Below, piece by piece: positions 23,633 through 51,394 of a DNA stretch of 64,000 bases (position 1 is the stretch's first letter; each line of letters opens with the position of its first letter). The position numbers and the translations under genes were made by a program. The stretch spans positions 405 through 64,404 of the forward strand of contig JAJZVC010000011.1 of the NCBI GenBank assembly GCA_021845865.1, in the 5' to 3' direction. The DNA comes from Pseudomonadota bacterium (lineage in GTDB: Bacteria; Pseudomonadota; Gammaproteobacteria; Burkholderiales; UBA9220). The notes beneath the pieces were generated by a model. It saw nothing but the letters and a program-made list of their open reading frames with translations. It ran no database searches and was not told the DNA's origin.

Positions 23633-23892
23633 GCGACGACACCCTCCTCGAATTCCCCTGCGACTTCCCAGTCAAGATCATGGGCAAGACCCAGGACGGC
23701 TTCGCCGAGGCCATGGTCGCCATCGTCGTCAAGCACGCGCCGGATTTCGACGCCGCCACGGTGGAAATGCGCGCCAGCAAGGGCGGCAACTACCTGTCCC
23801 TGACCTGCACCGTGCGCGCCACCTCCAAGAGCCAGCTGGACGCCCTGTACCGGGAAATCACCGGCCACCCCATGGTATCCATGGCGCTGTAA
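23629..23892 (+). CDS. ybeD: YbeD/DUF493 protein
   Basis: [23 protein letters not shown]; sits before lipB. Confidence 0.88.
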
Positions 23893-23896
23893 GGTC

Positions 23897-24979
23897 GTGG
23901 CGCGGCTGGCGGTCAAACACCTGGGACGGGCGGACTACCTTCCCACCTGGGAGGCGATGAAGGCCTTCACCGCCGCTCGCGGCCCGGAAACCGCCGACGA
24001 GTTGTGGCTGGTGGAGCACCCTCCCGTCTATACCCTCGGCCAGGCGGGCAAGCCGGAGCACCTGCTGCGGCCCACCGGCATTCCCGTGGTGAACATCGAC
24101 CGGGGCGGTCAGGTGACCTACCACGGCCCCGGCCAGATCGTCGCCTACTTGCTGCTGGACTTGAAGCGGCGCGGCATCGGCGTCAAGGAACTGGTCAACC
24201 GCATGGAGCAGGCGGTGATCGACCTCCTGGCCGGCTACGGCATCGCCGCCGAACGGCGTGAAAAAGCCCCGGGCGTGTACGTCAACGGCGCCAAAATCGC
24301 CGCCCTCGGCCTGCGCATCAAAAACGGTTGCTGCTACCATGGCCTGGCCCTCAACGTGGACATGGACCTCAGCCCCTACCAGGCCATCAACCCCTGCGGC
24401 TACGCCGGACTGGCCGTGACCCAGATACGGGATTTGGGCATTGCGGGCGGCTTGGATTTGCTGGGTGAGCGGCTAATTGGCCACTTGGCGGAACAATTGG
24501 GCGATAGTCCCTCACCCCTTCCCCCTCTCCCGGGGGGAGAGGGGCTGATACGCCCTTCTCCCTCTGGGAGAAGGGTTGGGGATGAGGGACGGCCATCAAA
24601 ACACAAGCTGCCCCTGCCGGAAGCCCTGAAAACCTTCGCCCGCCACCTCCGCACCGAACAAACCGACGCCGAAACCCTGCTCTGGTATTTCCTTCGTGAC
24701 CGGAGCCTGTTGGACCTGAAATTCCGCCGCCAGCACCCCGTGCCGCCCTACGTGCTGGACTTCTACTGCCACGACCTCAACCTGGCCGTGGAATTGGACG
24801 GCGGCCAACACACCCCCGAAATTGACGCCGAGCGCACAGCCTACCTGGAACAAAAAGGCATCCGCCTCCTACGCTACTGGAACCACGACCTCCTCCAAAA
24901 CACCGAGGACGTCCTAACTGACCTCTACAATCACTGCTCCGAAATTCCCCTCTCTCCCCGGGAGAGGGGCCAGGGGTGA
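23897..24979 (+). CDS. lipB: Octanoyltransferase LipB fused in frame to a C-terminal DUF559/Vsr-like endonuclease domain
   Basis: LipB motifs [39 protein letters not shown] to about 24500; then a repeat-encoded linker and [42 protein letters not shown]. Confidence 0.88.
24509..24588. repeat. Inverted pair of ~36-bp palindromic repeats (consensus CCCTCAyCCC-n-CCCyTCTCCC-loop-GGGAGArGGG)
   Basis: 24509-24544 CCCTCACCCCTTCCCCCTCTCCCGGGGGGAGAGGGG (+); 24553-24588 read on the minus strand CCCTCATCCCCAACCCTTCTCCCAGAGGGAGAAGGG. Confidence 0.85.
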
Positions 24980-24983
24980 GGGG
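24947..24983 (-). repeat. Third copy of the same palindromic repeat, overlapping the fusion stop codon
   Basis: Minus strand CCCCTCACCCCTGGCCCCTCTCCCGGGGAGAGAGGGG. Confidence 0.85.
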
Positions 24984-25025
24984 CCGCCGCCACCCTGAGC
25001 CCCGCTATCACAGGACCGCCACCCT

Positions 25026-25949
25026 ATGACCAACCGCCAAAAGGGCGCCGCCAAGACCGCCCGCATCCCCATCAAGATCGTCCCCGCCGAGCCCCAGCGC
25101 AAGCCCCGCTGGATTCGCGCCCAGGCCCCCTCCGGGCCCAAGTACCAGGAGATCAAGCAGCTCCTGCGGGAGCGCAATCTCCACACCGTGTGCGAGGAAG
25201 CCGCCTGCCCCAACATCGGCGAGTGCTTCAGCCACGGCACCGCCACCTTCATGATCCTGGGCGACATCTGCACCCGCCGCTGCCCCTTCTGCGACGTGGC
25301 CCACGGCACTCCCCTGCCCCCGGACGCCGACGAACCCGTCCACATCGCCGAATCCGTGGCGGCCATGAAGCTGCGCTACGTGGTCATCACCAGCGTCGAC
25401 CGGGACGACCTGCGGGACGGCGGCGCCGGCCACTTCGCCGCCGTGGTCCGTGCCGTGCGGGAACGCTCCCCCGATACCAAGATCGAAATCCTCGTCCCCG
25501 ACTTCCGCGGCCGCCTCGACGCCGCCCTGGAGGCCCTCGGCGAAGCCCTCCCCGACGTTCTCAACCACAACCTGGAAACCGTCCCCCGCCTCTACAAGCA
25601 GGCCCGCCCCGGCGCCGACTATGCCCACTCCCTCACGCTACTGCGGGAATTCAAGCGGCGCCACCCCGGCATCCCCACCAAGTCCGGCCTGATGGTGGGC
25701 CTGGGAGAGAGCGACGAGGAAATCCTGGAAGTGATGCAGGACTTAAGGGCCCACGGCGCCGACCTGCTGACCATCGGCCAATACCTCCAGCCCACCCGCC
25801 ACCACCTGCCGGTGGCCCGCTACGTGACGCCGGAAACCTTCGAGCGCTTCACGGCGCGGGGATTGGAGATGGGGTTCCGCAACGCCGACTGCGGGCCGAT
25901 GGTGAGGTCCTCGTACCATGCCGACCGGCAGGCGAAGGAAGTGGTATAG
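25026..25949 (+). CDS. lipA: Lipoyl synthase
   Basis: [27 protein letters not shown]. Confidence 0.96.
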
Positions 25950-25984: not shown

Positions 25985-26239
25985 TCAACCAACCAGCTTG
26001 TCGTAATCAGCGTGGCTGCCAATCCAGAACCAGAGAATGCCGTCCTCCACATCAATGCCGAGGGCACGGAAATGCAACCCCACGCGCACCGACCAATAAC
26101 GACCGATTTTCTTGAGGTGCAAAGAGGGATGGTGGGGATTGGTTTTCAGTAAGGCGAAATTCCGCTCGGCGGTCTCGCGGACGCTTTCAGGCAGTTGCCG
26201 ATGGCAATCCCAAAAGGCCGGCGAGGCGTAGTGCTTCAA
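25985..26239 (-). CDS. RelE/ParE-superfamily toxin
   Basis: 84 aa; NPHHPSLHLKK, WSVRVG.HFRALG, WFWIGSHADYD; TTGA overlap with the upstream gene. Confidence 0.75.
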   Translation of the reverse strand: MKHYASPAFWDCHRQLPESVRETAERNFALLKTNPHHPSLHLKKIGRYWSVRVGLHFRALGIDVEDGILWFWIGSHADYDKLVG

Positions 26240-26436
26240 AGCTCGGAGCAGCGGCCGGCGCGGAAGGCTTGGAGGGCCTCGTTGGCGAGGGCATCGAGCT
26301 TCCCGGCTTGGGAGTCTTCCTTGATCTGGCTGTCCCAGGCCTTGGCGTCGAATTTGGCGAACCAGTCACGGAAGGCCGCCAGTTCCGACGACGAGAGTTT
26401 CCCGATTTCCTGCTCAATCAACTCGACTTTACTCAT
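26236..26436 (-). CDS. Putative antitoxin
   Basis: 66 aa, MSKVELIEQEI..WDSQIKEDSQAGKLD; coupled to the toxin; GGAG RBS and TGCTATACT extended -10 upstream. Confidence 0.65.
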   Translation of the reverse strand: MSKVELIEQEIGKLSSSELAAFRDWFAKFDAKAWDSQIKEDSQAGKLDALANEALQAFRAGRCSEL

Positions 26437-26515
26437 GGTTAACTCCAAAAACTCAATTACAACAAAAGTATAGCATTGCACTTCTATAGGCTAAAGAGGA
26501 AATCGGAGCTGACCT

Positions 26516-50806: not shown

Positions 50807-51394
50807 CGCGCTTCGCGCGGATAGTTTGAGACGGGGGCGGCCCCGTAAGCCGCTCACTTTTCTTGTCTCGCCAAGAAAAGGTAAGCACCCCACAAGGGTG
50901 TCCTCGCCGGACCGGGCGGCTGAGGAATTGGCTGCGGCATAACCTTGGCGCTACGCGCAAAGGTTAGCCTACGCCGCAACAAGCCGCTGTGCGGCGTGTT
51001 GTCGGCCTGCGGCCTCAGACACCCTCAGCCGACTTCCCCCGGCCCGGCTGTGCTACTCGGCGGCGCAGAGGGGAATTCTCCCTCACCCCCGGCCCCTCTC
51101 CCGCATGCGGGAGAGGGGGGAACTACACCGGTGGTGGGGGGTACAACGGTTTTTGATTTTCATCCCCTCTGCGCCGCCGAGGATTTGTGGCTCAAGCGGG
51201 GGAAGTCGGGCGCGTTTGTCTGAGGCCGTAGGCCGAGTTTACGCGCCCGCCCGCTTGGGCCATAAACCGCAGGGAAGCCCGAAGGGCCGGGGAAGCGGGG
51301 TGCCTTTTTCTTGGGTTACTTTCTTTTGGGCAAGCAAAAGAAAGTGACTAGCTGTCGGGCTACCCCCGACACCCAATCAACCGCGCGAAGCGCG
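50807..51394. mobile_element. Non-coding nested inverted-repeat element (MITE-like or structured DNA)
   Basis: Terminal 14-bp IR CGCGCTTCGCGCGG / CCGCGCGAAGCGCG; internal IR pairs 51002-51021/51217-51236, 51029-51041/51197-51209, 51056-51074/51163-51181. The repeat structure is seen directly; mobility is inferred. Confidence 0.65.
51080..51118 (+). repeat. Fourth copy of the lipB/DUF559-type palindromic repeat
   Basis: CCCTCACCCCCGGCCCCTCTCCCGCATGCGGGAGAGGGG. Confidence 0.85.

Follow-up and report, generated by a model that had tools for sequence, protein, structure and literature searches.

The stretch of DNA analysed here, hereafter the window, comprises 64,000 nucleotides (nt) of contig JAJZVC010000011.1 (assembly GCA_021845865.1, positions 405 to 64,404, forward strand) from a draft Burkholderiales genome of 84 contigs (UBA9220), and our subject is its lipB gene, which reads without a stop codon into a nuclease domain bracketed by palindromic repeats. 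The open reading frame (ORF) at 23897..24979 on the + strand encodes 360 amino acids (aa), in which a complete LipB is joined in frame to a complete DUF559 domain, as an earlier sequence-only reading of this DNA had proposed. On the LipB side, the Pfam family LplA-B_cat (PF21948) matches residues 13-180 (E 8e-39), while over residues 2-203 the LipB equivalog of NCBIfam, NF010923, reaches 316.6 bits, its cut-off being 298. On the nuclease side, the hidden Markov model of DUF559 (PF04480) matches residues 244-347 at E 3e-33, with 114.4 bits against a cut-off of 20.6 and profile positions 3-108 of 109 covered, which places the domain in the family above the gathering score across its full length. 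The features of the locus are collected in Table 1.

Table 1. Features of the LipB-DUF559 locus and its downstream neighbour, in window coordinates.
Feature	Position	Strand	Basis
Coding part of lipB (LipB residues 1-201), complete but lacking a stop codon of its own	23897..24499	+	NF010923 above cut-off; stop codon of relatives aligned at 24500-24502
Inserted cassette of 492 bp (repeat pair on the left, DUF559 ORF, repeat on the right)	24500..24991	+	Inverted repeat; absent from 29/29 related lipB loci; present in L112
BoxC/PIT/TMECO-type unit: tail (CCCTCACCCC) then hairpin (CCCCTCTCCC-GGG-GGGAGAGGGG), translated as 13 aa	24507..24545	+	Inverted-repeat search; motif as given in PMC4666352
Second unit, opposite orientation: hairpin then GGGGATGAGGG, translated as 12 aa	24552..24590	-	Inverted repeat; fold
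DUF559 (Vsr-fold by model) nuclease domain without its own start codon; Pfam match ~24626-24937	24599..24943	+	PF04480; PDB 3hrl; AlphaFold2 model; dN/dS
Right-end unit: imperfect hairpin then GGGGTGAGGGG, supplies the stop codon TGA of the fusion	24947..24991	-	Inverted repeat; ORF list
lipA, usual downstream neighbour of lipB	25026..25949	+	ORF list; lipA tblastn match beside lipB in 28/29 related loci

Between the two protein domains the frame passes through two head-to-head, GC-rich palindromic units with 39-nt arms that are 79% complementary, and this left pair folds as a single long hairpin (DNA -33.5 kcal/mol, z -5.0, 0 of 200 shuffles as stable). Both this pair and the position of the stop codon had been read correctly from the letters: the TGA at 24977-24979 falls inside the GGGGTGAGGGG of a third unit. 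The outer arms, 24500-24544 and 24947-24991, form an imperfect inverted repeat of 45 nt that is 84% complementary, so that terminal inverted repeats, a criterion for MITEs (miniature transposable elements with inverted repeats) and insertion sequences, are present. From 24400 to the stop of the fusion the frame contains no ATG, again in accordance with the sequence-only reading, and from 24500 to 24709 it contains no GTG or TTG either; the earliest in-frame start-type codon inside the cassette is the TTG at 24710, already within the nuclease domain. Because the cassette has no start codon, the nuclease domain should be made only from the lipB frame. Among the final codons of lipB are two TTGs, at 24485 and 24497, with no clear Shine-Dalgarno sequence, and the predicted product is a true LipB fusion, with initiation at one of these codons as the less likely alternative. 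Pfam gave neither a Hint/intein domain nor a Y1 (HUH) transposase domain or other known transposase family in the 360-aa ORF, and Rfam gave no family at gathering score over 24300-25200, where all matches were sub-threshold, hairpin-shaped and microRNA-like and were set aside.

A gene fusion in a metagenome-assembled genome (MAG) could be an assembly or base-calling artefact, in this case a missed stop codon or frameshift at a repeat-rich junction, and the draft state of the genome and the ends of contigs from other samples inside the repeats (~24527-24604) speak for that reading. Among the Logan contigs, three runs of one study of mine drainage (X1, X2 and X3) were informative, and runs X5-X20 contain 5-11% of the sampled words; the search turned up no informative RNA run. 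One X1 contig spans 24341-25150 with 0 differences, though X1 may be the source sample; the X2 contigs cover 23850-24597 and 24604-25150 with 0 differences, and the X3 contigs cover 24111-24527 and 24577-25150 with 2 substitutions. No indel is listed in any of these contigs, which are assembled contigs and not raw reads, so that both sides of the junction are reproduced by two other samples without the frameshift or missed stop that the sequence-only reading had named as its own refutation. An orthologous filled site, L112, was found at the same position on an 89.8-kb metagenome contig from another data set with ~90% DNA identity; it was the single ortholog in a metagenome-contig scan with the linker and DUF559 as query, which returned 3 loci only. 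Together with L112, three further fusion protein clusters make an artefact highly improbable.

To define the inserted unit, we compared the locus with 29 lipB loci from related genomes, both same-genus genomes (G001 and G002) included. None of the 29 has a DUF559 match between lipB and lipA, and lipA stands directly beside lipB in 28 of them, in agreement with the expectation that relatives would carry an empty junction. In G001 and G002, lipB ends in its stop codon and is followed after ~30-85 nt by lipA. The TAG stop codons of G002 and of a further relative, G022, align with window positions 24500-24502, the first triplet of the 45-nt inverted repeat, and for this reason we take 24500-24991 as the inserted unit; since the empty sites of G001 and G002 have no repeats at all, the unit includes its own. 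The lipB-lipA spacer of G022 carries repeat-only units and no nuclease. One of the 29 loci comes from an unpublished genome, which also contributes one of the 151 order genomes and one row of the metG comparison below, and its removal alters no conclusion. Among 120 LipB homologues in the matches listed, PF04480 occurs in 6 and the remainder are 198-250 aa long; four of the clusters listed (P0001-P0004, 84-85% identical) are C-terminal LipB-DUF559 fusions of the window's type. In two others (P0014 and P0018, with LipB ~60% identical), a different DUF559 subfamily is attached in frame to the N-terminus of LipB through repeat-derived peptides, and lipB would therefore have been struck independently at both ends. 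Elsewhere, the window's genome holds two further LplA/LipB-type catalytic-domain matches.

The nuclease domain matches PDB entry 3hrl (E 6e-22), and a profile of 35 such domains reaches 3r3p, the catalytic domain of the homing endonuclease I-Bth0305I (E 0.0018). An AlphaFold2 model of the domain (predicted local distance difference test, pLDDT, 87) retrieved with Foldseek 3hrl (template-modelling score, TM, 0.66/0.80), then 3r3p (TM 0.60-0.68) and then E. coli Vsr, 1vsr (TMq 0.49, E 0.099), which makes I-Bth0305I the nearest characterised relative. Residues D54, E65, D67 and H71 and the block YVLDFYCH are invariant in the 35 sequences, and the model thus points to a Vsr-like restriction-endonuclease-type fold with conserved acidic and histidine residues. 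The Vsr family itself is absent from the Pfam hits at E <= 0.01, and the likeness to 1vsr is one of fold alone. Profile matches to enterotoxin B-subunit chains and PvuRts1I (E 0.01-0.6) were disregarded as weak chance matches, and an AlphaFold2 model of the whole fusion (8-row alignment, mean pLDDT 46) was not used.

Comparison of the window with L112 over the DUF559 part gives 21 synonymous and 7 nonsynonymous differences (synonymous rate dS 0.334, nonsynonymous rate dN 0.028, dN/dS 0.084), against a dN/dS of 0.20 for both LipB and LipA, and this ratio indicates that purifying selection acts strongly on the nuclease, despite its lack of a start codon. The linker differs between the window and L112 by an in-frame 6-nt indel, and in-frame indels also occur in the linkers of the four fusion clusters P0001-P0004. 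Past the domain a 1-nt indel puts the L112 tail into another frame, in which the ORF runs on to overlap the start of lipA; because the tail frames differ, the selection covers the domain and not the tail. The proposal that the cassette borrows host translation is in this way supported indirectly, by the missing start codon, the dN/dS of 0.08, the in-frame linker indels and, as described below, the in-frame residence of related cassettes in other host genes.

The repeats were also identified. In each unit a C-rich 9-mer is followed by two G-rich 9-mers, the second of them GGGTGAGGG, with a short loop before each, and TMECO repeats are defined in PMC4666352 (Holder et al. 2015) by a C-rich 9-nt stem, a 3-6 nt loop, a G-rich 9-nt stem, a loop of ~3 nt and a second G-rich 9-mer, with one mismatch allowed. 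The units at 24507-24545 and 24552-24590 fit this definition, that at 24947-24991 does so if a 2-nt bulge in its C-rich stem is allowed, and the window's units are almost letter for letter like the E. coli copies in Table 1 of that article. By their design, then, the window's repeats are assigned to the known BoxC/PIT/TMECO family of intrastrand-triplex repeats, so that the repeats around the nuclease, which the sequence-only reading had proposed as part of a candidate mobile cassette, are not new. According to PMC4666352, 3610 TMECO copies occur in 262 proteobacterial genomes (Holder et al.), the copies in E. coli MG1655 are always intergenic with no mobility function ever found nearby, and the repeats form triplexes in vitro and mark unstable loci, with no origin or mobility function assigned; 'endonuclease' and ycjD are mentioned 0 times in it. 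The units here are not intergenic: those of the cassette are translated as part of the lipB fusion ORF, and a pair elsewhere in this genome as part of metG.

Outside the cassette, the palindrome recurs. Across the window's genome there are 11 palindromes, spread over 7 loci, in addition to the imperfect right-end copy, and a single DUF559. A pattern search over 151 genomes of the window's order found the palindrome 9 times in the window's own genome, and since the reversed-pattern control gave 0 matches in all 151, the palindrome is not a product of chance. In metG of the window's genome (contig C55:13259-13356, L138/L139), a repeat-only pair of units with a 28-nt spacer lies in frame, reading PSPAGRGAGGEG-PKAASSTGG-PSPQTPLPGGEG, just before the C-terminal tRNA-binding domain. 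At the same metG site, five Gallionellaceae/Nitrosomonadales MetRS genes (L005, L010, L021, L024 and L060) carry a full DUF559 cassette with similar linker peptides, G001 is empty and G002 has degenerate single units. A joint in X1 that 'goes back 474' had been considered as a circle junction and was ruled out, as it is this metG repeat pair (the 28-nt spacer matches).

The variable stem pair in 179 palindromes from the 80 loci described below is C-G in 152, T-A in 24, T-G in 2 and C-A in 1, and all three units of the cassette switch between the C-G and T-A types in a compensatory manner between the window and L112. This indicates that stem pairing is kept, and two repeat subfamilies copied whole would also yield the compensatory pattern. 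A further BoxC-type unit in the window, at 51080-51117 (C70:51484-51521), consists of a tail and a hairpin with a 6-nt loop and looks intergenic, the longest open frame across it being 134 aa. Two near-identical tail-hairpin/hairpin-tail pairs in the same genome (C57:1070-1175 and C74:18528-18635) have flanks that are also alike, which suggests a duplicated segment or a longer composite repeat. In E. coli K-12 (L169, NC_000913.3, 1351204-1351760), the DUF559 gene ycjD ends in a degenerate CCCTCTCCC hairpin, after which part of its 3' end is present a second time; TMECO no. 9 as numbered in PMC4666352, one of 23 TMECO sites in K-12, lies 168 nt downstream.

To see how far this arrangement extends, we scanned one genome per species with the window nuclease as the single query and with no search pattern derived from the repeats; 244 stretches were found and the best 80 were kept (48-62% identical), from Pseudomonadota, Planctomycetota, Chloroflexota, Thermodesulfobacteriota, Nitrospinota and other phyla. 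A palindrome lies within 250 nt of the DUF559 match upstream at 60 of these 80 loci, downstream at 34 and on either side at 65, and palindrome density is about 25-fold higher in the flanks (109 in 39,043 nt) than in the rest (41 in 365,526 nt), which bears out the predicted enrichment of the motif beside DUF559 genes across taxa. The layout upstream is stereotyped, with a hairpin and then a tail ~40-70 nt away from the domain. At 69 loci the DUF559 frame runs open for 100 aa or more on the upstream side, at 56 on the downstream side and at 53 on both, whereas the other two frames at those junctions are open for that length in 12 of 160 cases upstream and 21 of 160 downstream; 8 of the 80 copies are free-standing. 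Host genes were labelled by Pfam for 20 ORFs, and the remaining labels were assigned by eye from the flanking peptides. Cultured carriers at these loci include Methylomicrobium lacus (HsdM), Viridibacterium curvum JCM 18715 (MutS), Ferriphaselus sp. R-1 (MetRS) and species of Luteimonas and Pseudoxanthomonas. Pfam recovered DUF559 in all 20 ORFs, a Hint family in none, and host domains flanking on both sides for an MmeI-type methylase, MutS, MetRS, RecG, LeuRS, HrpA, Maf, Ham1 and MetH; hits on one side only were obtained for HsdM (L017 and L043, with hits upstream only), HsdS, N6_N4 methylase and Mur-ligase-like genes. Our search of the published literature found no description of DUF559 cassettes with BoxC ends or of their in-frame residence.

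In a tree of the nuclease domains (131 columns, many forks unresolved), copies cluster by host gene and site, with 23 label changes against a minimum of 13 and an average of 59.8 after shuffling, a count that 0 of 200 shuffles brought down as far. A single methylase group includes members from five phyla. There are also starred sister groups in different genes, namely LeuRS with a free-standing copy, MutS inside an HsdM group, Maf with free-standing copies, and HsdM with HsdS. Site fidelity with occasional moves is the pattern of homing elements, and transfer together with horizontally moved host genes would also produce it. At the level of the order, strong DUF559 matches, set at E <= 1e-20 by our own choice in order to leave out weak matches inside ORFs of 1500-2000 aa, occur in 53 of the 151 genomes and the exact palindrome in 66 (39/14 versus 27/71; odds ratio 7.3, Fisher p 6e-8, a value that is overstated because related genomes are not independent). 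One locus, L002:2473-4665, holds within a single MmeI-type methylase ORF both a full DUF559 cassette and a separate downstream in-frame repeat-only pair (SPSPFGRGIQGEG). Two MAGs of one project, one labelled Desulfomonilaceae (L007) and one Anaerolineae (L008), share an identical methylase-plus-cassette sequence, which reflects either a very recent transfer or a binning error.

The neighbourhood of the cassette also bears on how it arrived. Outside the 3' part of lipB, the window is closest to the same-genus genome G001: at informative sites, agreement with G001 versus L112 is 168:64 upstream, 24:3 in the 5' part of lipB and 80:26 in lipA, and over lipB 24121-24499 it flips to 14:28 (Fisher p 5e-6 against the lipB 5' part, 3e-7 against all flanks). 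In accordance with this mosaic, P0005, a stand-alone LipB from another data set, is identical to the window at 174 of 175 positions over residues 1-175 and at 10 of 28 over residues 176-203, where the fusion protein P0004 is identical at 21 of 28, as it is at 106 of 112 in the nuclease. From these two patterns, the cassette would have come with ~80-380 nt of adjoining lipB. The donor of both appears to have been a related lineage already filled at the lipB site, with homologous recombination as the apparent route. The mosaic fits homing with co-conversion, and ordinary homologous allele exchange would give an identical pattern.

Directly past lipA, within 25985-26481 on the - strand, lies an ORF of 84 aa for a ParE-like toxin (PF24732, E 2e-7), whose upstream end is overlapped by an 81-aa ORF with no Pfam match; the two are probably a toxin-antitoxin pair. 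This segment is common to L112 and G002 (~80-93% identity) and not to G001 (~52-55%).

Given the anatomy, the empty sites, the mosaic, the purifying selection, the repeat-DUF559 association across phyla and the in-frame residence in host genes, each of them observed, we think it fairly probable that 24500-24991 is a stop-free, translated, homing-type mini-element whose mobility and cleavage are inferred. The element consists of an endonuclease ORF of ~115 aa that has a predicted Vsr fold and lacks a translation start, with inverted BoxC/PIT/TMECO-type triplex-hairpin repeats at its two ends, and it sits exactly on the lipB stop codon, leaving LipB whole. The ribosome would continue through the repeats, read as Pro/Gly-rich linker peptides, into the nuclease and end at the TGA in the right-end repeat. 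Homologous recombination with a related lineage filled at the same site would have brought this lineage the element together with the 3' part of lipB next to it, and the element belongs to a widespread class found in frame within many genes of unrelated kinds. The nuclease may cut empty or repeat-only alleles, with repair from the filled copy spreading the element as in homing, and with rare moves to new genes. The repeats may serve as the ends of the element or as structural recognition sites and, since most of their frames are free of stops, as flexible linkers that make the insert tolerable to host proteins, and repeat-only copies may be non-autonomous derivatives. A wider version, which we put forward tentatively and hold to be somewhat less probable than not, is that DUF559-BoxC cassettes form a distinct autonomous mobile class of 'in-frame homing elements'. 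Here a minimal Vsr-fold nuclease would recognise the hairpin or triplex of its own repeats, or the empty or repeat-only site, and drive copying; because the insert is stop-free and translated as a linker-flanked extra domain, it would survive inside essential genes; and BoxC/PIT/TMECO repeats, those of E. coli K-12 included, would be its MITE-like non-autonomous offspring.

Several observations weigh against a homing-type element. The nuclease lacks the N-terminal NUMOD/helix-turn-helix region, with only ~115 aa between the repeats and no further Pfam domain there, and so has no DNA-binding domain like that of I-Bth0305I. Neither a target-site duplication nor a shared target motif was seen at the lipB site, where the intergenic flanks cannot be aligned with the empty sites. 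The window's genome has a single DUF559 and no near-identical cassette was found at another site in it or at a second site in the genus; G001 and G002 carry another cassette, 57-59% identical, in frame in another gene, the nearest relative outside lipB shows ~60% identity, and in the tree a long branch (0.77) leads to the lipB pair. The 80 loci are not independent, as many are orthologous (16, for example, represent one Xanthomonadales gene), and in five genomes reached through the loci, with 15 DUF559 matches, 3 of 10 further copies have a palindrome within 200 nt, so that the adjacency is a property of the subfamily. Cleavage and movement are themselves inferences, and the fusion protein is predicted. 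The main rival takes the repeats as the mobile or recombinogenic agent, acting through another factor or through structure-induced instability, and DUF559 as a trapped passenger or a hairpin- or triplex-processing nuclease rather than the spreader. In its favour, the repeat occurs in 27 of the 98 order genomes that show no strong DUF559 match, with as many as 70 copies in one, the window's genome has ~7 repeat loci to one DUF559, repeat-only insertions are polymorphic in metG within the genus, and TMECO loci are unusually rearranged among E. coli strains, as reported by Holder et al. (PMC4666352). Against it stand the 25-fold local enrichment of repeats, in a stereotyped layout, beside one DUF559 subfamily across phyla, the strong purifying selection on a nuclease that could be made only as an appendage of LipB, and the homing endonuclease that is its closest characterised structural relative, and we regard it as unlikely.

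Strong purifying selection would also fit a domain that is useful to the host, and the fusion might then be an adaptive bifunctional enzyme, inherited vertically at this site, with the nuclease serving, for example, Vsr-like mismatch nicking or DNA repair. That the fusion frame is kept in four clusters points the same way, as does the dS of the cassette (0.33), which equals that of lipB (0.33) and lipA (0.36) and makes a long residence at the lipB site possible; many hosts elsewhere, moreover, are DNA enzymes (methylases, MutS, RecG and HrpA). The cassette is nevertheless absent from the same-genus genomes and from the near-identical LipB P0005, the 3' end of lipB is mosaic, and the C-terminal tails of the window and L112 are in different frames. 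Hosts also include MetRS, LeuRS, ValRS, MetH, Maf, Ham1 and a Mur-ligase-like gene, none with a link to DNA, and the lipoate pathway is not known to require a nuclease of LipB. An adaptive fusion therefore seems to us a distinctly improbable account, less so than an artefact and more so than repeats acting on their own.

The homing-type element can be placed among known systems. Its repeats share the unit design of BoxC/PIT/TMECO repeats and their frequent arrangement as inverted tandem pairs; those of E. coli in PMC4666352 are intergenic with no mobility function found nearby, whereas the window's units are translated and bracket a nuclease gene. With the EDxHD/Vsr-like homing endonuclease I-Bth0305I (Taylor et al. 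2011, PMC3239194) it shares the predicted nuclease fold, and both may be likened to selfish genes living in conserved host genes that they leave intact. I-Bth0305I has an N-terminal NUMOD/helix-turn-helix DNA-binding region and resides in a self-splicing group I intron, with relatives in inteins (same source), and Vsr-family endonucleases act as phage homing genes, free-standing or within an intein, according to a preprint (10.1101/2022.08.31.505936). The cassette differs in having the nuclease domain alone, no intron or Hint domain and terminal inverted repeats, and in that it would stay in the protein. Inteins, too, are in-frame selfish insertions in conserved genes, often with a homing endonuclease; the cassette has no Hint domain, has junctions made of repeat-encoded Pro/Gly linkers and gives no sign of protein splicing. 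Rickettsia palindromic elements, like the window's repeats, are short palindromes in frame in coding genes that are read as an extra peptide. They encode no enzyme and are confined to Rickettsia, and we know of no partner nuclease for them; the cassette itself includes a nuclease ORF, and its class reaches across many phyla. The parallel with REP/RAYT systems drawn in the sequence-only reading holds loosely. As in REP/REPIN and RAYT, a gene is flanked by inverted, short, GC-rich palindromes that are also dispersed over the genome. RAYTs, however, are HUH/Y1 transposases and intergenic, whereas the cassette has no HUH transposase, its ORF holding only LipB and DUF559-type Pfam domains, and its copies are translated within host ORFs. 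Homing endonuclease genes and in-frame palindromic elements thus seem the closer analogues.

A partner nuclease would make the origin and mobility of BoxC/PIT/TMECO repeats directly testable, and ycjD of E. coli K-12, near TMECO no. 9, is one possible test system. What the window adds is an insertion that falls exactly on a stop codon, a mosaic from which the date and route of its acquisition can be read, a dN/dS from an orthologous pair, compensatory stem changes, and a single site that is repeat-only in its own metG and holds the full cassette in related families. For annotation, LipB-DUF559 'fusions' and odd inserts in aminoacyl-tRNA synthetase, MutS, RecG and restriction-modification genes would be element insertions and not new architectures. 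If BoxC/PIT/TMECO repeats are indeed offspring of such cassettes, this would explain a repeat family that has been without an origin since the 1990s. The class would also offer nuclease genes a third mode of residence inside essential genes, in addition to introns and inteins—by being kept in the protein through flexible linkers.

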